64,000 nucleotides of DNA from an uncultured Methylomirabilota bacterium (GTDB lineage Bacteria > Methylomirabilota > Methylomirabilia > Methylomirabilales > 2-02-FULL-66-22), in assembly GCA_963705305.1 (NCBI GenBank), contig OY970067.1:5152001-5216000 (forward strand), in the 5' to 3' direction. Position 1 is the stretch's first letter, and each line of letters begins with the position of its first letter. The position numbers were made by a program, and so were the translations under genes. The notes under the pieces were generated by a model. That model was not told where the DNA came from and ran no database searches. It worked only from the letters and a program-made list of their open reading frames with translations. Positions 1,686-23,715 of the stretch are shown piece after piece.

Positions 1686-2884
1686 TGCCGGCCCGCCTGG
1701 AGGATTACCGGGAGGTCGCGCCGCGGGGGACGATCGACCTCCTGGTCCGGCTGGCCGAACGGCTGCAGGGTCGACGGTTCCTGCACGTGAACGCCAGCCG
1801 CTACGGGGCCGGAACGCCCGAGATCCTCAACCGGCTGGTGCCGATGCTGCGGGAGCTGGGGATCGATGCCGCCTGGGAGGTCGTGGTCGGCGACCCGGAT
1901 TTCTATACCAGCGTGCGGACCCTCGAGTCGGCGCTGGAGGGGCAGCCCGAACCGATTGCGCCGTCCGTCGTGCAGGCTTACACGGCCCCCGCCGCCCGAA
2001 ACGCCGCCGAGCTTCCCCTCGAGGCCGATCTGGTCATGCTGCACGACTTGGCCCCCCTGCCCCTGGCCCGCCATCGTCCCTCCCACGGCCGCTGGATCTG
2101 GCGCTGCCACACGGATCTGTCCAGGGCGTACCGGCGCGCCTGGCACCTGATCCGGCGGGAGGCGGAGCGGTGCGACGCCGCCGTCTTCTCGCTGCCGCGC
2201 TTTGCCCAGCGCCTGGGCGTCCCGATGCTCCTCATCCACCCTTCGGTGGATCCCCTCAGCGAGAAGAATCGCGACCTCGGCCGCCGCGACATCCAGCAGG
2301 TCCTGGCCCGCTTCGGCATCCCGCAGGACAAGCCGCTGCTCCTCCAGGTGGCGCCCTACGCCAGGAACAAGGACCCCCTGGGCGTGATTCAGGCCTACCG
2401 GCTGGCCAAGAAGTACGTGGACTGCCGCCTGATCCTGGCGGGATGGGGGGCGGCCGACAATCCGGAGGGCACCGCCGTCCTGGCGGACGTGCAGCAGTTC
2501 GCCGCCCGGGATCCCGACATCCACCCCCTGCTGCTGCCTCCCGATGCGGCGCTGGAGATCAACGCGCTGCAGCGCGCGGCGGCCATCGTGGTGCACAAAC
2601 CCCTGCAGGAGGACTTCGGATTGGCGGCAGCCGAAGCAATGTGGAAGGGGAAGCCGGTCATCGGCAGCCCCGCCGGCGGCCTCCCGACCCAGGTGATTTT
2701 CGAGGTCACCGGCTACATCGTGAATTCGGTCGAGGGGGCCGCCTTCCGGATTCGCCAGCTCCTGCAGAATCCGGACCTCATGATCCGGCTGGGCGGGGCC
2801 GCGCGGGAGTACGTCCGGCGGAATTTCCTGATCACCAGGCATCTGGGCGACTACCTGGCGCTCCTGGCCAACCTCACCGGATAG
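1685..2884 (+). CDS. TreT-like GT4 glycosyltransferase (divergent paralog)
   Basis: WIWRCHTD, HPSVDPLSEKN, EINALQR, EDFGL..EAMWK; colinear with 5572..6837. TGATG stop/start coupling to the upstream gene. Confidence 0.85.
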   Translation: MPARLEDYREVAPRGTIDLLVRLAERLQGRRFLHVNASRYGAGTPEILNRLVPMLRELGIDAAWEVVVGDPDFYTSVRTLESALEGQPEPIAPSVVQAYTAPAARNAAELPLEADLVMLHDLAPLPLARHRPSHGRWIWRCHTDLSRAYRRAWHLIRREAERCDAAVFSLPRFAQRLGVPMLLIHPSVDPLSEKNRDLGRRDIQQVLARFGIPQDKPLLLQVAPYARNKDPLGVIQAYRLAKKYVDCRLILAGWGAADNPEGTAVLADVQQFAARDPDIHPLLLPPDAALEINALQRAAAIVVHKPLQEDFGLAAAEAMWKGKPVIGSPAGGLPTQVIFEVTGYIVNSVEGAAFRIRQLLQNPDLMIRLGGAAREYVRRNFLITRHLGDYLALLANLTG

Positions 2885-2892
2885 GGGTTTGC

Positions 2893-4140
2893 ATGACGGA
2901 TACCATGCGCGCCGAGGATCTGCTCGCGGCTTCGGACCTCGCGGCGGTCGACGCCGCCGGACCGGTGGAGATCCTCGCGGGCCTGCATGCGGTCAACCAG
3001 GCCCGCAGTTTGCCCCAGCTTCTGGCGGCGACCGCCGGCGCCCTGGAACAGTCCTTCTCGGATCGGAAGGGATTGATCCTGGTGGCGGATGGGGGATCCG
3101 GGGATGAGACGCCGGAGGTCATGCAGGCCTGGACAAGCGCGCATTCGGACGCGCCGGCGATCCGCTGGCTGCGCCTGCCGGGTCAGCCCAGTCGGGGCCG
3201 GGCCGTCCTGGCCGTCCTGACGGTCGCCCTCCGTCTCCAGGCGACGGCCGTCGCGGTGGTCGATGCCGGTCTGGTGAGCCTGACCCCCGCGGGGATTGCG
3301 GGGCTGCTCGAGCCCCCGCTGGCCGGATCGGCGGCGTACGTCTCCCCCGCGTACGCCCACGCGGTCTCCGAGGGAACGCTCACCACCAACCTCCTGGCCC
3401 CCATGGCCCGCGCGCTGTACGGGGCGGGGATCCAGCAGATCCTGGGCGGCTGTGCCGGGATCAGCCGCAGCTTTCTGGAGCAATTCCTCCAGGCCGTCGG
3501 CGCGGAGCGGGACGCCGCCGAGCGCGGGGCGGAGATCTGGCTGCCGGTCGAGGCAATAGCGTCCCGGGCCGCCATCCAGGAGTCGTTCCAGGGTCGCAAG
3601 CGGCTGGACCCGGGGCTGGCCCCGCCGGACCTCGCCACCATCCTGGCCCGGACGGCAGGACCGTTCTTCGCCCTGATGGAGCGGTACCAGGAGGTCTGGC
3701 GGGACAGCCCGCGCTTCGGGGCGGTGCCGCAGTCGGGGGGAGCCGCGACGGTGTCGACAGAGATCGGGGAGGCGAATCTGGATCGAATGGTCCGGGGATT
3801 CCGCATGGGCCTCAAAGATCTGCTCCCGGTCTGGGAGCAGGTCCTGGCCGAAGAGACCCTGTCACAGCTCTACCCCCTGAGCCTTCCCGCCCCCGAGGAT
3901 TTCCGGTTTCCGGCCCCCTTGTGGGCGCGGGTCGCCTGCGACTTCGCCCTGGCGCACCACGAGCGCCGCCTGTCCCGGGACCACTTGCTTCGCGCCCTCA
4001 CCCCGCTCTACCTCGGCCGGGTGGCGGGCTTCCTCGCGGAGGTCCAGGCGGGGCCTCCCGGGCGTCTCGCCCAGACTCTGGAGGAGATCGGTCGGACCTT
4101 CGAGAAGGAAGTGGACTCCTTGCGAGCGCGATGGAGGTGA
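2893..4140 (+). CDS. Glucosylglycerate-synthase-like GT-A glycosyltransferase (divergent)
   Basis: VADGGSGDET, GTLTTNLLAPMARALYG, LWARVACDFALA, LTPLYLGRVAGF, EEIGRTFE..RW match the Ggs-like family. ATG at 2893 lies within ORF 1651..4140. Confidence 0.7.
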   Translation: MTDTMRAEDLLAASDLAAVDAAGPVEILAGLHAVNQARSLPQLLAATAGALEQSFSDRKGLILVADGGSGDETPEVMQAWTSAHSDAPAIRWLRLPGQPSRGRAVLAVLTVALRLQATAVAVVDAGLVSLTPAGIAGLLEPPLAGSAAYVSPAYAHAVSEGTLTTNLLAPMARALYGAGIQQILGGCAGISRSFLEQFLQAVGAERDAAERGAEIWLPVEAIASRAAIQESFQGRKRLDPGLAPPDLATILARTAGPFFALMERYQEVWRDSPRFGAVPQSGGAATVSTEIGEANLDRMVRGFRMGLKDLLPVWEQVLAEETLSQLYPLSLPAPEDFRFPAPLWARVACDFALAHHERRLSRDHLLRALTPLYLGRVAGFLAEVQAGPPGRLAQTLEEIGRTFEKEVDSLRARWR

Positions 4141-15752: not shown

Positions 15753-16824
15753 GACTCTCCTCTCCCGCGGGGCGGGGGGAAGGTTTCGGAGGCCGGCGCA
15801 TGGGCGTCCGGGCCCGCGGGACGAAGCTCCCCCGCGTCAGGTAATTCATGGTCAGGGTCGTGGTGTACGCGGTCAATTCCAGGAGGACGGTGCACTCTCT
15901 GCGGATCTCCACGTGCAGCTGCATCCGCTCCGCCGCCTGCTCGATGCTGTCCACAAGGGCCCGGACCGCGCTCCGGCGGACGCCGGTCCAGTACTCCACC
16001 TTGCCGATGAGCTCCATCCGGTAATCCCGGACCATCTCCCAGGCGGGGCGGATGCCGCGCTTCCGGCGGCCCTTTCGAATGAAGAAATCCGGCAGGTCGT
16101 TCTCCAGGGCCACGTCCACCGGGGTCACCTCCCCCTGGTTGGCCCGGAAGAACTCCTCCACGGTCATGTCCATCTCCGCCACCGTGATGTCGGTGGAGGC
16201 GAGCCGGACCGGCGGCTCCTGGTCGGCCACCGCCCGGGCGATCCGGTGCACGTAGCGCAGCTTGCGCAGCGCCGGCCAGCCCCGGTAGCGCACGCGCCAG
16301 CGCGAACCGGGTGTGAGCCAGACGGCGAACGTCTCGGCGAAGTCGTCGTCCGGATGCTTCTGGGCATACCACCCCTCGATATGCCGGACGAAGTTCCGAT
16401 CGAAGGGGACGGGCCGATAGCGGTCGCGGTAGGGGCGGTTGAAGGGGCCGAACAGCTCGCGCCATTCCGGCGTCTCGTAGATCTTGTAGGCGTAATTGAA
16501 GGCGTGGCCGGCCTCGTGGCGCAGGTACATGCGGATCTCCCGCTCATCCTCGAGGTCGTCGATCTCCTTCTCCAGGCGGGCCAGATCGGCGTCTGCCAAG
16601 TAGAACGGGATCCCGATGATCGGCTCCCCTGACGGACAGCCCCACTCGTCCGTCAGGTAGCACGGCGGCCGAAAATGCTTGAGGCCCTTCCGCTCGATCT
16701 CGCGGTAGAGCTTCTGCACGTACCGCTCGACTGGCGACCCTTCAAGCTTGAGTCCGAGCTGGCTGATACGCTGGGAGAGGAGAGGCCGCAGGCTTGGCAA
16801 GGTGCTCTCAAATGTCCGCATCAT
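15715..16824 (-). CDS. Putative zinc-binding metallopeptidase (Peptidase_Mx-like)
   Basis: HEAGH zincin motif, DEWGCP, IPFYL, YAQKHPDDDFAETFAVWL. Confidence 0.85.
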   Translation of the reverse strand: MMRTFESTLPSLRPLLSQRISQLGLKLEGSPVERYVQKLYREIERKGLKHFRPPCYLTDEWGCPSGEPIIGIPFYLADADLARLEKEIDDLEDEREIRMYLRHEAGHAFNYAYKIYETPEWRELFGPFNRPYRDRYRPVPFDRNFVRHIEGWYAQKHPDDDFAETFAVWLTPGSRWRVRYRGWPALRKLRYVHRIARAVADQEPPVRLASTDITVAEMDMTVEEFFRANQGEVTPVDVALENDLPDFFIRKGRRKRGIRPAWEMVRDYRMELIGKVEYWTGVRRSAVRALVDSIEQAAERMQLHVEIRRECTVLLELTAYTTTLTMNYLTRGSFVPRARTPMRRPPKPSPRPAGEESHGDAANRDRPHP

Positions 16825-17120
16825 CTCTATAATGCCATGCCCGCGCCGTCATTTCAATGCCTGCATCCATTTGTTCCGATCACGACCCGGGGGTCGCGAC
16901 GATTCGGCCGAAAAGCCGGCTCTTGCACCTGCGCGGGCCTGGTCTTTCGTCGCAGCGGAGCTGCCAGGACTCGGCCCTTCTTGGTGCGATCCATGTCCGG
17001 TGCCGGGTACCGAGTCGTGCGTCTCCGCATCGTTAGGTTTCGAAACATGTCGCGATGCATCCTCTGCGGTCGGATTTGAGTGTTTTCCGAAATAGCTGTG
17101 CTCACAATAAGTTGCCGCGC

Positions 17121-17148
17121 TTGCAAAAGGGAATAAGCGATATATATT
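17121..17148 (+). promoter_or_regulatory. Putative sigma70 promoter of the riboswitch-DUF2294 transcript
   Basis: TTGCAA-N16-TATATT in an AT-rich patch just upstream of the riboswitch. Confidence 0.5.
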
Positions 17149-17153
17149 AGTAG

Positions 17154-17273
17154 GTGAGAGGGGAGTAGATCTTTCCTCACTGGTCTGGTGGGTTCGTCAG
17201 CACGACCGTCATTGAAGCTGCGGTCCGGCTCACCAGACGCGGGGCGGAAGGCCCCAAGATCGAGACCTCTTGC
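17154..17273 (+). ncRNA. yybP-ykoY (Mn2+) riboswitch aptamer
   Basis: AGAGGGGAGUAG ... CGUCAGCAC ... GAUCGAGACCUCU. P1 gtgagagg/cctcttgc, P1.1 gatctt/aagatc, P3 gtctggtgggtt/ggctcaccagac, inner gaccg/cggtc. terC lies downstream. Confidence 0.85.
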
Positions 17274-17301
17274 GTGGAGTGGCACGCAAGAGGTTTTTTT
17301 T
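17265..17301 (+). terminator. Intrinsic terminator, riboswitch expression platform
   Basis: Perfect 12-bp stem acctcttgcgtg/cacgcaagaggt followed by a T-run; the 5' arm overlaps the aptamer P1 3' strand (ON-switch geometry). Confidence 0.9.
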
Positions 17302-17386
17302 ATCCCCCGATGCCATGACGACCTCCGGCAGGCCCACGGGAGACTCGCAGCCCCACGCCGCTACCCCACGCGGAGAGGAGGGAAAG

Positions 17387-17803
17387 ATGCCCGTCCTTGA
17401 CAGTGTGGGAGAGATTTCCGGCCGCTTGCAGGGCAATGCCTGCAGCCATACCAGGGGCCAGATCGAGGCTGAGATCAGCAAGGCCATTATCCGATTTGAC
17501 TGCCAGCACCTGGGACGGGGCCCGGCGGACGTCCGGACGCGGATCGTGCAGGACATGATCATCGTCCGCTCCATCGACGTCCTGACCCCCTCCGAGCACG
17601 CCCTGATCAAGGTGGGGAGCGTGGAGCTGGTGAAGCAGGTGCGGTCGAAGCTCTACGAGAGTCACCGGGAGGAGCTGATCCGAACTCTCCGCAACCTGAC
17701 CGGATGCGAGATCATCAGCATGCACCGCGACCTCAGCACGCGGACGGGGGAGCGGTTGATTGTGTTCGTCACGCGTGAGAATGTGGAGGCGCTATTCCGG
17801 TGA
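17387..17803 (+). CDS. DUF2294 / MpsC-family protein (copy 1)
   Basis: TRGQIEAEISKAIIRF...GRGP.DVRT.IVQDMIIVR...LTPSE...VKQVR...HRDLSTRTGE; RBS gaggaggg. Confidence 0.88.
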   Translation: MPVLDSVGEISGRLQGNACSHTRGQIEAEISKAIIRFDCQHLGRGPADVRTRIVQDMIIVRSIDVLTPSEHALIKVGSVELVKQVRSKLYESHREELIRTLRNLTGCEIISMHRDLSTRTGERLIVFVTRENVEALFR

Positions 17804-17848
17804 GAGGCGAACGACCCACGGGCGATCTTCTTTCCTGGCCGTTTCCGC

Positions 17849-17877
17849 TTGACAGGAAGGCAGGTCTGCCTGATTCT
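17849..17877 (+). promoter_or_regulatory. Putative sigma70 promoter upstream of leader motif copy 1
   Basis: TTGACA-N17-GATTCT. Confidence 0.45.
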
Positions 17878-17910
17878 TAAGTTGAGTGGGCTAGCTAGCT
17901 GGCTACCAAA

Positions 17911-18011
17911 GACCGGCGGACGAGACGAAGGGTAGCCCTCGCGGGGCGACCAGCAGTAGCGTAGGCCGGCACGGGGATATGAAGGAATCCCTGTGCCGGC
18001 CTATGTTTTTT
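17911..18011 (+). ncRNA. Candidate cis-regulatory leader RNA (copy 1) fused to an intrinsic terminator
   Basis: CGGCGGACGAGACGAAGGGTA-hairpin-GGGCGACCAGCAGTAGCGTAGGCCGGCA; 17-bp stem 17962-17978/17987-18003 followed by tgtttttt. Confidence 0.75.
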
Positions 18012-18192
18012 CTCGGGCCCGCATGTTTCGGCAAGGTGGAGGCGACCCAGGTACACTACGGCTCGAATCCGGACGGGGACGGAAGGGCGGAGAGGACAAG
18101 CATCGACTTTTCCCGGGGAGCGAAACAGGAGCGAACTGGAGCATCACGGGGATCCGCGTTTCAGCACGAGACCTGGAAAGGGGGTGGCAGAG

Positions 18193-18606
18193 ATGCCCGC
18201 TCTTGGCAGCGTGGGAGAGGTGACCGGTCGAGTGAAAGGCGCCGTGTCTTCCCGAACGAAGGGGCAGATCGAGGCCGAGGTCAGCAAGGCGATCATCCGG
18301 TTTGACCGCGAGCACTGGGGACGGGGCCCGGCGGACGTTCGGACGCGGATCGTGCAGGACATGGTCATCGTCCGCTCCATCGACGTCCTGACCCCCTCCG
18401 AGCACACGCTGGTCAAGACCGGGAGCGTGGATCTGGTGAAACAGGTCCGATCTAAACTGTACGAGAGCCACCAAGCGGAGCTTTACCGGATGCTTCGCGG
18501 GCTGACCGGCTGCGAGGTCATCAGCATGCATAGCGACCTCAGCACGCGGACCGGGGAGCGCTTCATCGTGTTCATCCTGGGCGAGAATCTGGAGCAGCGC
18601 ATGTAG
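18193..18606 (+). CDS. DUF2294 / MpsC-family protein (copy 2)
   Basis: Close paralog of 17387..17803 (TKGQIEAEVSKAIIRF, GRGP, HSDLSTRTGE). Confidence 0.88.
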   Translation: MPALGSVGEVTGRVKGAVSSRTKGQIEAEVSKAIIRFDREHWGRGPADVRTRIVQDMVIVRSIDVLTPSEHTLVKTGSVDLVKQVRSKLYESHQAELYRMLRGLTGCEVISMHSDLSTRTGERFIVFILGENLEQRM

Positions 18607-18639
18607 CGGCGCGCGAGCAGCGACACGGTCCGGACGACA

Positions 18640-18738
18640 CGGCGGACGAGACGAAGGGTAACCCCGGCGGGCGACCAGCAGTAGCGTAGGCCGGCAGAGG
18701 GATCACACTGGGATTCCTGTGCCGGCCTTTCGTTTCTT
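18640..18738 (+). ncRNA. Candidate cis-regulatory leader RNA (copy 2) fused to an intrinsic terminator
   Basis: Same 21-nt and 28-nt blocks as copy 1; stem aggccggcagagggatc/gattcctgtgccggcct followed by ttcgtttctt. Confidence 0.75.
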
Positions 18739-18794
18739 GGGATCCACAGACGCGGGGGCAATGGTGATGGGAATCTGATCCGAGGAGGTGAGAC

Positions 18795-19832
18795 GTGGAC
18801 GCGCACTGGTTGTGGCTGGTGTTCGGCGTCGTTGTGCTGGCCATGCTGACGTTCGACATCGTGGTGTTCTGCCGAAGACCGCGCGTCCTGCCCCTCCGCC
18901 AGGCATTTCTCTGGAGCATGGCCTGGGTCTCCTTGGCCCTCATCTTCGCCGGGTCCGTATACGTCGTGGAGGGGCCCAATAAGGGACTGGAGTTCGTCAC
19001 CGGCTACCTGATCGAGTGGTCCCTGAGCATGGACAATCTGTTCGTGTTCCTGGTGATCTTCACCTATTTTGCCGTTCCCCAGATGTACATGCACCGCGTA
19101 CTCTTCTGGGGGATCATGCTGGCGGTGATCCTGCGGGGGTGCTTCATCGCCGCCGGGCTGACGCTCCTCGCCTACTTCCACTGGATCATGTACGTCTTCG
19201 GGGCTTTCCTGATCTTCACAGGCCTCAAGCTCTTGCGGCAGGGGGACGAGCACGTGGAGCCGGCGAGGAATCCGGTCCTCCGTCTGTTTCGCCGGTTCTT
19301 TGCGGTGACGCCCGACTATCACCAGCAGAATTTCTTCGTCAAGCTCAACGGGCACTGGCTGGCGACCCCCCTGACCCCGGTGTTCATCGTGATCGGCACC
19401 ACGGATATCATGTTCGCGGTGGACTCCATCCCGGCCATCTTCGCCATCACGCGGGACCCGTTCATTGTGTACACCTCCAACGTGTTTGCCGTCCTCGGCC
19501 TGCGGGGGCTGTTCTTCCTGCTGTCGGGGATCATGGGGCTCTTCCGCTTCTTCAAATACGGCCTTTCGGTCGTGTTGATGTTCGTCGGCGTCAAGATGCT
19601 GGTGGCGGACTACTATCACATCACCTCCGGGGTGTCCCTGGCGGCCGTTGTTTCGATTCTGGGCGCGTCGATCCTGATCTCCATCATCTTTCCCGAGCGT
19701 CCGGAGCCGGCACCTGCGCCCCTCGCCTGCTCGGAGGCCGATGCTTCCGTCGAAGAGACGGGCGAGGGTCGCGGCTGGACCGAGGCGAAGGACCGGGGTG
19801 CGGTCGGCGCGCGATCGCACACGGCCCGATGA
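18795..19832 (+). CDS. terC: TerC/Alx family metal (Mn) homeostasis membrane protein
   Basis: GYLIEWSLSMDNLFVF, HRVLFWG, DIMFAVDSIPA, IVYTSNVFAVLGLR; RBS gaggagg before GTG. Confidence 0.92.
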   Translation: MDAHWLWLVFGVVVLAMLTFDIVVFCRRPRVLPLRQAFLWSMAWVSLALIFAGSVYVVEGPNKGLEFVTGYLIEWSLSMDNLFVFLVIFTYFAVPQMYMHRVLFWGIMLAVILRGCFIAAGLTLLAYFHWIMYVFGAFLIFTGLKLLRQGDEHVEPARNPVLRLFRRFFAVTPDYHQQNFFVKLNGHWLATPLTPVFIVIGTTDIMFAVDSIPAIFAITRDPFIVYTSNVFAVLGLRGLFFLLSGIMGLFRFFKYGLSVVLMFVGVKMLVADYYHITSGVSLAAVVSILGASILISIIFPERPEPAPAPLACSEADASVEETGEGRGWTEAKDRGAVGARSHTAR

Positions 19833-19894: not shown

Positions 19895-20797
19895 ATGCGT
19901 ATCGTGCTGGGTGTTGACGGATCGGAGGGGGCGCGCTGGGCGACGGAGGTCATCCTCGCGCTGCCTCTCCCGCCGCCGGTGGATGTGACTGCCGTCTCGG
20001 TGATCGATGTCCCGGAGCCGCCCTTCACTTCCCTGACGGGGCCGGCCCGCAAGGCTTATGCCGGGGCCGTTGCAACGATGCGGCGCGAGGCGGCGGAGGC
20101 GGCGGCGGCGGCGCTGGGAAAGACCAGGGATCATTTGCACGGGCGTGTCTCCAGCCTCACGACCCAGGTCAAGACAGGCCGCCCCGCAACCGTCCTCTGC
20201 GATACGGCCAAGACGCTGGCAGCCGACCTCTTGGTGGTGGGCTCGCGCGGGTTGGGCCCGGTAAAGGGGATGCTGCTGGGCAGCGTCTCGCACGAGGCTG
20301 TTCGCTCTGCCCCCTGCTCCGTCCTGGTGGCCCGCGGCCCGGTGATCGATGTGCAGCGGGTGCTGCTGGGCGTGGACGGCTCCGTCCACAGCGAGGCGGG
20401 GGCGAAGTTCCTGGCGGGCCTGTCTTTTTCCCCGCAGGCCACCATTCATCTCTGCGCGGTGGCGGAGCAGCCCATCTTTGGCCCCGGGCACACGCCGAAG
20501 ACCCCGGAGGAACTGGCAGAAGCGCTGCGGACGATCGAGAAGGTGGCACGGGCGGGGGCTGAGCGGGTGCTGGCGGACACGCAGGCGCTGCTGGGCACCA
20601 ATGGTTGCAGCATCGTCCCTTCTCTGCGCTCCGGCCACCCGGTGGATCACCTGCTGGCGGCCATCCGGGAGTCCCGCCCTGATATCGCCGTCGTCGGCGC
20701 CAAGGGGCGCACGGCCGGAAAGGAGCATCCGTTGGGGAGTGTGACGCTCATGGTCCTCAAGTACGCCTCGTGCTCCGTGCTTGTGGTCCGATCGTAA
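19895..20797 (+). CDS. Universal stress protein (tandem USP domains)
   Basis: Two copies of VLGVDGS...VVG(S/A)(R/K)G...LGSV...CSVLV. Confidence 0.92.
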   Translation: MRIVLGVDGSEGARWATEVILALPLPPPVDVTAVSVIDVPEPPFTSLTGPARKAYAGAVATMRREAAEAAAAALGKTRDHLHGRVSSLTTQVKTGRPATVLCDTAKTLAADLLVVGSRGLGPVKGMLLGSVSHEAVRSAPCSVLVARGPVIDVQRVLLGVDGSVHSEAGAKFLAGLSFSPQATIHLCAVAEQPIFGPGHTPKTPEELAEALRTIEKVARAGAERVLADTQALLGTNGCSIVPSLRSGHPVDHLLAAIRESRPDIAVVGAKGRTAGKEHPLGSVTLMVLKYASCSVLVVRS

Positions 20798-20891
20798 GGG
20801 CGGCCATCGCCAATGCAGCGCCGTACTCCCGCGGGCTGTCGCAGAGCCTTAAGGGGCCAGGAGGACACGTGGGATCTGAAAGGAGAGCACG

Positions 20892-21179
20892 ATGATGTTC
20901 GTCACGCGCGCCGAAAAGGAAAGGCCGCCTGCCAGCTTTCAGCTCGGCTGGTTTCGATGCGAGGCCTGCAACAAGGTGAAGCCATTGTCGCAGCGACAAT
21001 GGCGCTCGCCCTTCGAGCGGGGGTTCGGCGTGTGCCGCGGGTGCTACGAGACCTGGGAGCGGCTCGGCCGCCGCTGTCCACGCTGCTGGAGGCAAGTCGG
21101 CCGCGACGAGGCACTGGCCTTCCATATCGATCGGAGCACGTTCGGCCACTTCCTGTGCGGCGGCGCCCTGCTCGCCTGA
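20892..21179 (+). CDS. Small Cys/His-rich putative zinc-finger protein
   Basis: CEAC, CRGC, CPRC, H..HFLC in 95 aa; RBS aaggaga. Confidence 0.6.
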   Translation: MMFVTRAEKERPPASFQLGWFRCEACNKVKPLSQRQWRSPFERGFGVCRGCYETWERLGRRCPRCWRQVGRDEALAFHIDRSTFGHFLCGGALLA

Positions 21180-21297
21180 CGACGAGGAGGCCTTTCTGGT
21201 CCGGCCGGCAGCACCGGGATCTCCTGGCGGCATGCCGCTGCGGAATACGCCGGGCGGCCCGGACGACCAGCCTCTGGGACGCTGAACGGCAATACAA

Positions 21298-22059
21298 TTA
21301 CGGCGCGGGGAGGATCTGGCTGCGGTCGAGCTCTTCCACCCGGGGGAGGAGCGCCTGCCGTGCGAGGGCAAGGTCTTCTTCCAGGTCGATCCGGATCCAG
21401 GGCAGGTCCCCCACCTCGACGACCCCGATGGGAACCTCCGCGGCCAGCTCGCGGAAGGCACTTTCGTATTCGTATTCCAGCGCGTCCTTGCCGGTCCTGA
21501 CAAGCTCCTCGAGAATACCCCGGAGAACCAGGGCGGCATCGGCAGAAAGGCGCAGGAAGCCGACGGCCTCGCCTCGAATCCGCGGATCGTCGCGGGCCTC
21601 CCGGCTGACCTCGACCACCCATTCATCCTCGCAGATCACCTTCGGCGCCTCGCCCGCGTCCCGGAATCCCTCGTCCACGGCAATGGCATTCGGATCGGCG
21701 GAGGCCAGCAGGCGCGCCAGCAGCTCCTGGGGACAGAACACATCGCCGTCCATGAGGAGGATATCGTCGTCCAGCTCCTCTCGGGCCGTCCACAGCGAAA
21801 GGATGTTGCCGCGGCCGGGCGGGGTATTCTCGATCAACCGCACCACCACATCGGCGGGACCGCCGGCGGTCTCGGCCGCGATCTTCTCCTTCGGGTGGCC
21901 CACGATCAGAACGGCTTCCGGTATCCCCAAGGCCCGCAAGGCCTCGATATGACGGCGCAGGAGGGACTGTGCCCCGATCTGCAGGAGGCACTTGGGGGTC
22001 CCCCCCGTCTCCGGTTTGAGCCGTCCACCGACGCCGGCGGCCAGGATGATGGCGCGCAT
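21298..22059 (-). CDS. NTP-transferase, phosphocholine cytidylyltransferase (LicC)-like
   Basis: MRAIILAAGVGGRL..PKCLL, LMDGDV, GEAVG, WIRID.EEDL. Confidence 0.85.
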   Translation of the reverse strand: MRAIILAAGVGGRLKPETGGTPKCLLQIGAQSLLRRHIEALRALGIPEAVLIVGHPKEKIAAETAGGPADVVVRLIENTPPGRGNILSLWTAREELDDDILLMDGDVFCPQELLARLLASADPNAIAVDEGFRDAGEAPKVICEDEWVVEVSREARDDPRIRGEAVGFLRLSADAALVLRGILEELVRTGKDALEYEYESAFRELAAEVPIGVVEVGDLPWIRIDLEEDLALARQALLPRVEELDRSQILPAP

Positions 22060-22269
22060 GGGAGGACTCCGCGATCCGAATGGGGGAGAAGACAAGAAAG
22101 CAGGACCGATGCTAAGCGAGCACAAACCGGGGTGTCAAGCCCATTTCGGACTGTTTCGGCCGGAACCGATCTTTCCTGCCCCCGGCCGATGTGGTACAGT
22201 ACCGCCACCATCGGCGGCGGCGCCGGCGAGGGCCCGCCCAGCCCTGGCGGTGCACAGCGGGAGATCAGC

Positions 22270-23715
22270 ATGGCCTATTCCGACCTGCGGGAATTCATTG
22301 CCGCCCTGGAGCGGGCCGGCGAGCTTCGCCGCATCACGGCGGAGGTCAACCCGGTCCTCGAGATCACCGAGATCACCGATCGCGTGAGCAAGCAGGGCGG
22401 CCCCGCTCTGCTGTTCGAGCGCGTCCAAGGATCCCGCATGCCCCTGCTGATCAATGCTTTCGGCAGCCCGGCGCGGATGCGGCTGGCTCTGGATGTCCCA
22501 TCCCTGGACACTCTGGCGGCCGAACTCCAGGAAGTCCTGGATCTCAAGGCTCCGCAGGGACTCCTGGACAAGCTGCGCATGCTCCCCAGGCTGCACGAGC
22601 TGACCAGCGCCTTCCCCAAGGTGGTCAAGGACGGCCCCTGCAAGGAGGTCGTCGTGCGGGACGCGCCGTCGCTGGCAGGGCTCCCCATCCTGCAGTGCTG
22701 GCCGCAGGACGCCGGCCGCTACATCACCTTCCCGCTGGTCTTCACCAAGGATCCGGAGACGGGCGTTCGCAACTGCGGCGCGTACCGGATGCAGCTCTTC
22801 GACGAGCGAACCACCGGCATGCACTGGCATGTGCAGAAGGGGGCCGCGGTCCACTACCGCAAGGCCAAACGCCGGGGCCAGCGGATCGAGGTGGGGGTTG
22901 CCATTGGTGCGGATCCTGCCGTCTGCTTCGCCGCAACCCTCCCCCTGCCCGAGGGGGTTGACGAGATGCTGGTGGCCGGGTTCATCCGGAAGAAATCCGT
23001 CGAAATGATCAGATGCGAAACCGTGGACGTCGAGGTGCCGGCCCAGGCCGAGATCGTCCTGGAAGGCTACGTGGATACGGAGGAGCTGCGCACCGAAGGC
23101 CCCTTCGGCGATCATACCGGGTATTATTCGCTGGCCGACGAGTATCCGGTTTTCCATCTGACCTGCCTCACCCACCGTCGCGATCCCATCTACCACACCA
23201 CCGTGGTGGGGCGGCCGCCCATGGAGGATTGCCACATGGCCGCCGCCATCGAGCTCCTCTTCCTTCCCGTCCTGCGCAAGCAGCTGCCCGAGATTGTGGA
23301 CCTCCACCTGCCCTTCGAGGGGGTCTTCCATAACCTGGTGCTCGTCAGCATCGACAAGCAGTATCCCGGCCATGCCCGCAAGGTCATGCACGCTCTGTGG
23401 GGCCTGGGTCAGGCCATGGTCAGTAAGGTGATCGTCGTGGTGGATCGAGACGTGGATGTGCGCGACTACTCCGAGGTGACCTGGAAGGCCCTGAACCACA
23501 TCGACCCGCAGCGGGACATCGAGTTCGTCCTGGGGCCCGTCGAGACCCTGGATCACGCCAGCCGGCTGCCGAAGTTCGGCTCCAAGATGGGGGTGGATGC
23601 CACCCGCAAGTGGCCGGAGGAAGGTTTCACCCGTCCCTGGCCGGACGAGATCGTGATGGACGAGGCGACGCGGCGGCTGGTGGACGGCCGCTGGAAGGAC
23701 TACGGATTGGGGTGA
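22270..23715 (+). CDS. ubiD: UbiD-family (menaquinone-biosynthesis-type) decarboxylase
   Basis: YSDLREFI..LE, EITEI.DRV, GPALLFE, N.G.YR.Q, EGPFGDHTGYY, VGRPPMED, SKMGVDATRK. Confidence 0.93.
   Translation: MAYSDLREFIAALERAGELRRITAEVNPVLEITEITDRVSKQGGPALLFERVQGSRMPLLINAFGSPARMRLALDVPSLDTLAAELQEVLDLKAPQGLLDKLRMLPRLHELTSAFPKVVKDGPCKEVVVRDAPSLAGLPILQCWPQDAGRYITFPLVFTKDPETGVRNCGAYRMQLFDERTTGMHWHVQKGAAVHYRKAKRRGQRIEVGVAIGADPAVCFAATLPLPEGVDEMLVAGFIRKKSVEMIRCETVDVEVPAQAEIVLEGYVDTEELRTEGPFGDHTGYYSLADEYPVFHLTCLTHRRDPIYHTTVVGRPPMEDCHMAAAIELLFLPVLRKQLPEIVDLHLPFEGVFHNLVLVSIDKQYPGHARKVMHALWGLGQAMVSKVIVVVDRDVDVRDYSEVTWKALNHIDPQRDIEFVLGPVETLDHASRLPKFGSKMGVDATRKWPEEGFTRPWPDEIVMDEATRRLVDGRWKDYGLG

Follow-up and report, generated by a model that had tools for sequence, protein, structure and literature searches.

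In Bacillus subtilis, the small regulator HutP is encoded by the first gene of its operon, and a terminator lying directly behind that gene gates the genes downstream; HutP is thought to bind RNA together with its ligand and to prevent termination. A comparable layout, in which a small mpsC gene is followed by an intrinsic terminator that would gate the next gene, is described here for a 64,000-nucleotide (nt) stretch of DNA from an uncultured bacterium of the phylum Methylomirabilota (contig OY970067.1), hereafter termed the window. All coordinates refer to this 64-kb window, position 1 being its first letter, and the features described in it lie on the + strand. Two copies of an RNA element, B1 and B2, follow here two successive genes of the DUF2294/MpsC family, and each copy precedes a further gene. 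These copies belong to a family of RNAs with a covarying structure, which is most economically read as a conditional terminator and which may be operated by the MpsC protein itself.

Two copies of a rod-and-terminator RNA

The two copies share, in identical form, a 21-nt block (17914-17934 and 18640-18660) and a 28-nt block (17944-17971 and 18669-18696), between which either copy carries a small CCC/GGG hairpin, and they are linked by direct repeats of 42 nt (88%), 32 nt (91%) and 26 nt (81%) at a spacing of 725-726 nt. Their resemblance exceeds chance by far. The second of the two covariance models described below, R2, recovers B1 (17911..18015) with 105.6 bits (E 1e-27) and B2 (18637..18741) with 89.9 bits (E 2.9e-23); folds and inverted repeats delimit both copies, and a terminator scan adds to the evidence for B1. 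In B1, the 5' strand of a short helix here termed P0 (17913-17917) is followed by a rod made up of helices P1-P4 (17920-17962), by the terminator hairpin (17962-18003) and by a T run (18006-18011), and the 3' strand of P0 (17965-17969) is formed by the first bases of the terminator hairpin. The same succession is found in B2, with the 5' strand of P0 at 18640-18643, the rod at 18646-18687, the terminator hairpin at 18688-18728, a T-rich tail at 18729-18738, and the 3' strand of P0 (18690-18693) again inside the terminator hairpin.

The terminator arms of B1 (17962-17978 and 17987-18003) are 94% complementary, and the consensus terminator scan credits this hairpin with 20 pairs, 12 of them G-C, followed by TTTTTT. 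That scan did not return the terminator of B2, the hairpin of which is visible in the fold, with 20-nt arms (18688-18707 and 18709-18728) of 85% complementarity and a T-rich tail. Folded at full length, B1 and B2 reach -56.8 kcal/mol (z -5.37) and -50.7 kcal/mol (z -3.24), respectively, energies as low as which were obtained with none of 200 shuffles, while the 61-nt 5' part folded alone does no better than its shuffles (z about 0). B1 and B2 are two copies of an RNA of about 100 nt, in which a rod-like hairpin with purine-rich internal loops runs directly into a strong intrinsic terminator.

The genes adjoining these copies are well defined. The first, mpsC1 (17387..17803, 138 aa; PF10057, E 2e-34), ends 108 nt before B1; it starts at ATG 17387, preceded by GGAGAGGAGGG, and its product matches the 138-aa protein P0003. 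Behind B1 lies its paralogue mpsC2 (18193..18606, 137 aa; PF10057, E 1.5e-36), the product of which is identical to the protein P0001 and the stop codon of which precedes B2 by 31 nt. The PF10057 scores of 118.5 bits for mpsC1 and 125.3 bits for mpsC2 compare with a gathering cut-off of 23, and the paralogy of the two genes is also apparent from the repeat search (85% identity over 300 nt, spacing 806). Behind B2 follows terC (18795..19832), which encodes an Alx-type TerC membrane protein (PF03741, E 2e-47; TIGR03718 TerC/Alx, 389.3 bits against a cut-off of 246.4).

A preliminary description of this region had reported two duplicated intergenic copies with shared blocks, a CCC/GGG hairpin and terminators, had placed the first before a DUF2294 gene and the second before terC, and had taken them for an attenuator outside the named riboswitch classes. 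The copies were confirmed by reading, repeat search and folds and their placement by Pfam, and the Rfam scan of both copies gave no family; that each copy also directly follows an mpsC gene is a feature absent from that description. At gathering scores, the Rfam 15 covariance models gave no match in the whole window or in six related loci (45,652 bases), and at E up to 10 the region 16600-19000 yielded five chance-level matches, the best of which scored 16.5 bits against a gathering score of 61. Assignment to an Rfam family, including yybP-ykoY, nhaA-I, DUF1646, NiCo and M-box, was rejected for want of any match at gathering score. In the literature covered on DUF2294, MpsC, ybcI and PF10057/COG5609/IPR018745, which extended to few subscription journals, no RNA element or RNA-binding role was found.

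BLASTN against 61 relatives gave convincing matches in two genomes only (G006 and G014), each with two copies and with the same mpsC-B-mpsC-B-terC order as the window; other matches, at E 0.004-1, proved unrelated where they were inspected. A covariance model built from these six copies, those of the window included (R1), found full matches in 3 of the 21 genomes of the genus and, on a sample of 151 genomes of the phylum, more distant copies in three further genomes (G083, G129 and G144). Over 185,579 species genomes, an exact pattern of the 3' block met eight stretches, and the real ones were only two overlapping stretches from one Methylomirabilota metagenome-assembled genome (MAG); the six others, from Rhodospirillales, Neopusillimonas, a Pseudomonadota MAG, Fimbriimonas, Ktedonospora and Phycisphaerales, had no covariance-model match and are ascribed to chance. 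A degenerate pattern derived from 11 copies retrieved 54 stretches on metagenome contigs, and the second model, R2, gave 39 matches of at least 50 bits on 51 metagenome loci, several of which it did not confirm and which were dropped as chance; three weak rows (21-22 bits) were also left out before counting. Two sets were defined in this way. The RNA-only set, for which loci were found without using MpsC, holds 50 matches, or 42 distinct copies, and the enlarged set holds 69 matches, or 67 distinct copies, from Methylomirabilota genomes, metagenome contigs and Planctomycetota, with the Planctomycetota loci and a second Methylomirabilota batch fetched through MpsC.

Covariation and the P0 helix

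The B RNA is a real structured family with a covarying structure. Across the 67 copies of the enlarged set, 93.0% of cells are paired and 25 of 28 pairs have changed on both sides, values that none of 500 shuffles reaches and that compare with 36.6-46.7% paired in slid controls. The 42 copies of the RNA-only set give much the same picture, with 93.8% of cells paired and 20 of 28 pairs changed on both sides; here, none of 500 shuffles attains the paired percentage or the covariation score, one attains the pair count, and slid controls are 36-49% paired. All of these figures derive from alignments that were fitted to the model, and are hence biased toward the structure, and from related sequences that are not independent of one another. 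Several pairs nonetheless occur as three or four Watson-Crick types, an example in P2 being C-G in 22 copies, G-C in 20 and A-U in 10, and the terminator helix itself is 95.0% paired over the 67 copies, with 12 of its 15 pairs changed on both sides.

The rod consists of P1 (3 bp), P2 (2-4 bp), P3 (3 bp) and a terminal hairpin of variable length, P4, with 2x2 internal loops between them, and no junction or pseudoknot was detected in it. The purines of the internal loops are nearly invariant, with G in 61-66 of the 67 copies at four positions and A in 57-63 at two. Two subtypes of the RNA, one with 5' CGGC or UCGG and the other with 5' AGGCAGAU, are found in both phyla, and two MpsC subtypes, respectively high- and low-scoring to PF10057, recur alongside them in both. 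The second RNA subtype (5' AGGCAGAT, with A at column 4) is mostly the copy lying just behind canonical mpsC in loci of the divergent type described below.

The helix P0 is formed by a conserved 5' CGGY and the GCCG at the start of the terminator 5' arm. Its core pairs, which join columns 4-7 with columns 84-87, are paired in 53, 65, 67 and 55 of the 67 copies, and the flanking pair, which joins columns 3 and 88, occurs as C-G in 16 copies and as U-A in 13. Column 88 covaries also with its partner in the terminator, column 145 (G-C in 37 copies, A-U in 23). Of the 23 copies with A at column 88, 13 have U at column 3, as do 2 of the 44 copies with G at column 88. One nucleotide that tracks two partners in this manner is the pattern predicted by mutually exclusive helices. 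Folding is consistent with this, since P0 is present in the minimum-energy folds of transcripts cut before the terminator 3' arm for 36 of 42 copies and, among Planctomycetota, for 17 of 18, while full-length RNAs fold as rod plus terminator and not as P0. The helix of the Planctomycetota pairs GUCGG with CCGAC, one register off the pairing of CCGGC with GCCGG. An antiterminator between a 5' (C)CGGC and GCCG(G) inside the terminator arm had been put forward in the preliminary description, and it now finds support in silico from the truncated-transcript folds, from near-universal pairing and from one covarying pair. The most economical reading of the structure and of the overlap between P0 and the terminator is that the B RNA is very probably a conditional terminator. 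Given that the terminator is far more stable than P0, its default state should be termination.

The mpsC genes and the candidate effector

Every locus was scored with an MpsC hidden Markov model built from 42 homologues. In the RNA-only set, canonical mpsC ends at most 300 nt upstream of the RNA, on the same strand, in 28 of the 42 copies and lies divergently within 600 nt in 11, and the remaining three copies are situated at contig ends, with 133, 196 and 241 nt of upstream sequence. The commonest layout comprises a cargo gene, a switch, a divergent promoter region, mpsC, a second switch and a second cargo gene; that of the genus of the window is the tandem of mpsC, switch, mpsC, switch and terC. 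PF10057 is present in 14 of 251 Methylomirabilota genomes, and the RNA adjoins the gene in all 13 that have a canonical match (at least 96 bits); the fourteenth (G003), with a weak match of 46.6 bits, has no RNA copy. Within the genus, the three genomes of 21 that carry the RNA are the same three that have canonical MpsC. Conversely, when 151 genomes of the phylum were scanned with R2 first, 11 presented matches, the eight with full matches (at least 50 bits) were all MpsC-positive, and no full copy was found in a sampled genome without canonical MpsC. Whole-genome scans of six genomes (G000, G083, G129, G049, G047 and G104), in which 150 first-look candidates per genome were scored, located copies at mpsC loci only. 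The link to DUF2294 that the preliminary description had drawn, with Firmicutes in view, was right in substance and is stronger than was claimed there, the RNA being tied to mpsC genes in two phyla; the organism of the window belongs to the Methylomirabilota and not to the Firmicutes.

These distributions also bear on the possibility that no switch is involved, and that the copies act constitutively, as terminators with some leakage or as 3' structures stabilising the mRNA, that they were copied together with mpsC and that they fix expression ratios within the operon. Both window copies do stand just past an mpsC stop codon, at the 108 and 31 nt given above, and the unit of mpsC plus RNA looks duplicated. 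However, the 11 divergent copies are oriented away from mpsC and form the 5' leader of a different gene, for example one of the Na_Ca_ex family, about 65 nt of structure that is not part of the terminator are conserved and covary across two phyla, and a 5' strand complementary to the terminator arm, for which a plain terminator has no need, is conserved as well. We consider an explanation of this kind highly improbable.

In the Planctomycetota, a Phycisphaerales MAG has five MpsC genes with adjoining RNA copies, which score 25.9-49.8 bits with R2; this genome was reached through a chance pattern match, and its real copies lie elsewhere in it. PF10057 occurs in 24 of 301 sampled Planctomycetota genomes, and R2 copies stand beside MpsC in many of 25 fetched loci, which show the presence of the module and not its tightness, having been fetched via MpsC. 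Weaker R2 matches (34-44 bits) in three genomes (G096, G070 and G127) were left out of the family. Those of G096 and G070, genomes in which no MpsC gene was found, for the most part retain no more than the 5' CGGC strand, a tiny hairpin and a terminator of similar kind; a single G096 match, at 37.0 bits, extends over most of the model in a weak alignment. At 2114-2691 of the G096 locus (L184) and 1751-3984 of the G070 locus (L185), two to three short elements per locus combine a 5' CGGCTGA strand with a AGGCCGCCGG-type terminator, as in the B family, mostly with a tiny hairpin in place of the rod and with no MpsC gene nearby; one of those in G096 follows a 101-aa open reading frame (ORF) without a Pfam match. 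Such elements may be a miniature version of the B family or a sister class to it, with another small protein as partner. A further arrangement is seen in G049 (L141, 1110-1379) and G047 (L142, 1946-2216), where a single mpsC is followed by two tandem switch copies, spaced by about 70 nt, and then by a low-scoring MpsC-type gene.

The genes downstream of the switch are diverse. Of the ORFs with a start at most 300-330 nt from a copy, the longest was taken as the first ORF, a rule that sometimes gives the wrong frame in GC-rich DNA. By this rule, 30 first ORFs from Methylomirabilota and metagenomes comprise nine MpsC-type genes, three TerC, one Na_Ca_ex, one M50 peptidase with CBS domains, one P-type ATPase (matched best in NCBIfam by a PMR1-type Ca ATPase model, with a score below the cut-off), one weak zinc-ribbon match and 14 without a Pfam family. 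A further 30, mostly from Planctomycetota, comprise ten MpsC-type genes, two phosphoenolpyruvate carboxykinases (PEPCK), one each of argininosuccinate synthase (ArgG), a NuoL/MpsA-like antiporter subunit, a fatty-acid desaturase, DabA, Na_Ca_ex and DUF2934, and 12 without a family. The cargo is without a single theme, cation export being dominant in the clade of the window and inorganic-carbon enzymes elsewhere. In G083 and G129, Na_Ca_ex is found on one side and a sigma-70 gene on the other; the latter gene (L075, 4932-7579, and L076, 2324-4541, respectively) is full-length, with regions 1.2, 2, 3 and 4, lies behind a switch and is flanked by low-scoring MpsC-type genes, an arrangement suggestive of MpsC paralogues that also work together with a sigma factor.

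We propose the following mechanism. Left alone, the terminator would win, and transcription would stop after each mpsC gene. P0 draws on the first bases of the terminator 5' arm, so that P0 and a working terminator would be mutually exclusive. MpsC, encoded directly upstream, would bind the emerging rod and keep P0 closed, and RNA polymerase would then read on, into mpsC2 behind B1 and into terC, probably with the universal stress protein gene that follows it, behind B2; MpsC would probably act only after sensing some signal. To the statement as a whole, namely that MpsC binds the rod, holds P0 and permits read-through, we assign a probability of about 0.5; RNA binding by MpsC, the read-through sign and the involvement of a signal are its parts that we infer. 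MpsC is favoured as the effector because the gene to which the RNA is tied is in most cases not one under its control, because mpsC is promoter-proximal, as are hutP or glcT, because copies are found at mpsC loci only and because the cargo is too varied for one ligand.

The same rod could instead bind a ligand or ion directly (e.g. Mn2+, Ca2+, another cation or a signalling molecule), which would stabilise P0 and give read-through, with MpsC as a co-conserved partner. Such a riboswitch would account for a conserved covarying structure upstream of an expression platform, for invariant loop purines and for the classic ON-switch geometry of P0 versus terminator. Tandem G.A mismatches can bind divalent metals, the cargo in the clade of the window consists of cation transporters (TerC/Alx, Na_Ca_ex and the PMR1-like P-type ATPase), and the tandem copies 70 nt apart in G049 and G047 are reminiscent of some riboswitches. 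Against it stand mpsC beside 39 of the 42 copies, the lack of a full copy without canonical MpsC in the sampled genomes and the confinement of copies to mpsC loci in the six whole genomes, and to our knowledge no riboswitch class is tied to one upstream gene that it does not regulate. Downstream genes across the family, moreover, have no common substrate, and the rod is simple, with no junction or pseudoknot detected. A direct riboswitch, the most serious of the rival readings, is on these grounds rather unlikely.

A second variant retains MpsC as the effector and reverses the sign, so that its binding, for instance to the 5' CGGC strand or to the rod, would keep P0 from competing and favour termination, placing mpsC2 under negative feedback and turning terC off. 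The evidence of coupling to mpsC is the same as for read-through, B1 does precede mpsC2, and negative autoregulation is the commoner arrangement among RNA-binding attenuators, as for PyrR and TRAP. But a terminator that wins unaided, with -50 to -57 kcal/mol against the 4-5 bp of P0, leaves little for a termination factor to add, and P0 stacks on the rod, so that a protein binding the rod should stabilise P0. We regard the reversed sign as improbable.

The protein itself offers few clues to relationship. The MpsC sequence matches PF10057 only, with no NCBIfam model and no PDB chain at E below 0.8. A confident AlphaFold2 model (pLDDT 85.9, pTM 0.75) predicts a disordered N-terminus followed by a helix, two strands, three helices and two strands. 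Foldseek gave no match for this model at E 0.001 or better, its top chains being TRAPP Bet3/TPC6 and H-NOX at E of about 0.01-0.1 (best 9.2e-3), and the best VIA-align Z, 7.1, falls within the common background range of that tool; no structural relative was convincing by either method. A homodimer prediction scored 0.18, where the mark stands at 0.42. Proteins of the clade are basic, with a median isoelectric point of 9.0 over 45 proteins and eight conserved Lys/Arg. A study in S. aureus (PMC6689103) describes MpsC as dispensable for MpsAB.

Several observations weigh against read-through controlled by MpsC. The predicted fold of MpsC matched no known RNA-binding attenuation protein in the Foldseek and VIA-align searches, and a rod as small as this could serve either as a protein site or as a simple aptamer. 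The core of P0 is nearly invariant, hence its covariation comes from one pair only, and in the subgroup with A at column 4 the helix is left with three pairs. In most loci canonical mpsC is not itself behind a copy, hence there is no classic autoregulation, and gene neighbourhood could reflect co-function and not regulation. For the Planctomycetota and the second Methylomirabilota batch, finally, the association with mpsC exists by construction, as these loci were fetched via MpsC.

More broadly, and tentatively, at somewhat less than even odds, DUF2294/MpsC would be the first member of a new family of antiterminator proteins that bind RNA and sense a signal, with the rod-plus-terminator RNA as its cognate target and with mpsC, switch and cargo forming a portable cassette. 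Such a cassette would often include a second, divergent switch, would carry varied cargo, from TerC and cation transporters in the clade of the window to a sigma factor, PEPCK and DabA elsewhere, and would extend at least to the Methylomirabilota and Planctomycetota, and the RNA and MpsC subtypes would be matched pairs.

Operon context and comparison with known systems

Upstream of mpsC1, a promoter-like site (17121..17148; TTGCAA, 16 nt, TATATT) matches the consensus at 9 of 12 positions and, on consensus match only, probably marks the start of the operon. It is followed by a structured leader, here termed leader A (17150..17305), which carries a strong terminator of its own (stem at 17262-17297 followed by a T run; 15 pairs in the terminator scan). 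Leader A is conserved in G006 and G014, with two inner hairpins, a conserved loop GGGGAGTAG (17160-17168) and a closing helix GAGAGG/CCTCTT, the 3' strand of which lies in the terminator arm. It was considered as a third copy of B and rejected, having no similarity to B, and Rfam gave no match to it at E up to 10; it resembles the yybP-ykoY Mn2+ riboswitch, and an element of that kind would suit an Alx-type terC. In the gap between mpsC1 and B1, the sequence at 17851-17879 (TTGACA, 17 nt, GATTCT) scores under the threshold of the promoter scan and may be a weak internal promoter, in which case B1 would be a genuine 5' leader of mpsC2. A gene for a tandem universal stress protein (usp, 19895..20797; PF00582, E 3.5e-45, in two stretches) begins 62 nt past terC and, judging from this spacing alone, probably shares its transcript. 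Further downstream on the same strand, 20813-23715 holds a 379-aa ORF without a Pfam or NCBIfam match and a gene for a UbiD-family decarboxylase (21895-23715).

If MpsC does operate the switch, the widespread DUF2294 would gain a role, and the name given to it in Pfam (Na+-translocating membrane potential-generating system) would be misleading. RNA catalogues would likewise gain a covarying family, and the list of protein-dependent attenuation systems (TRAP, PyrR, HutP, BglG/LicT and GlpP) a member from poorly studied phyla. The switch would also explain the control of TerC/Alx, of Ca/Mn-type transporters, of a sigma factor and of CO2-handling enzymes in the Methylomirabilota and Planctomycetota, where few regulators are known. 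Should the RNA turn out to be a direct riboswitch instead, it would constitute a new class.

Among known systems, the riboswitches that control TerC or cation transporters offer one set of parallels. The yybP-ykoY element (RF00080) is the usual leader of TerC/Alx genes, and the terC of the window matches TIGR03718, the model named R_switched_Alx; it is, moreover, an ON switch in which a closing helix opposes the terminator. The B RNA differs from it in being a single rod tied to mpsC and not a four-helix junction, and does not match it or any other Rfam family even at E up to 10. The Na+ (DUF1646 motif) and Li+ (nhaA-I motif) riboswitches are likewise small hairpin leaders with conserved internal loops, often fused to terminators and located before cation transporters, but Rfam gave no match for B, and the cargo of B reaches well beyond cation transport.

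The protein-dependent systems are closer in design. The repetition of attenuators between successive genes of an operon recalls PyrR and the three attenuators of the Bacillus pyr operon, with the difference that PyrR promotes termination, whereas read-through is proposed for MpsC. The ribonucleic antiterminator (RAT) hairpins of BglG, LicT and GlcT are bound by protein and overlap the terminator 5' arm, as is here proposed for the B RNA with MpsC; the RAT overlaps the terminator to a greater extent, while B shares only the 4-6 nt of P0. Neither the protein nor the RNA has any sequence relation to PyrR or to BglG/LicT/GlcT and their targets. With HutP, the likeness resides in the gene layout described at the outset, and both partners differ. 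The B RNA is a base-paired rod with G/A loops, in contrast to the spaced NAG triplets in single strand of the HutP RNA, and a reading of B as triplets of that kind was dropped, as the AG dinucleotides of B sit in the internal loops of a covarying helix. MpsC carries PF10057 only, and HutP did not appear in the Foldseek and VIA-align searches. By analogy, then, the B family would work in the manner of HutP, GlcT or PyrR attenuation, membership in those protein families being unsupported, and it would belong to the factor-controlled terminator/antiterminator leaders, to which it would bring a possibly new family of RNA-binding proteins.

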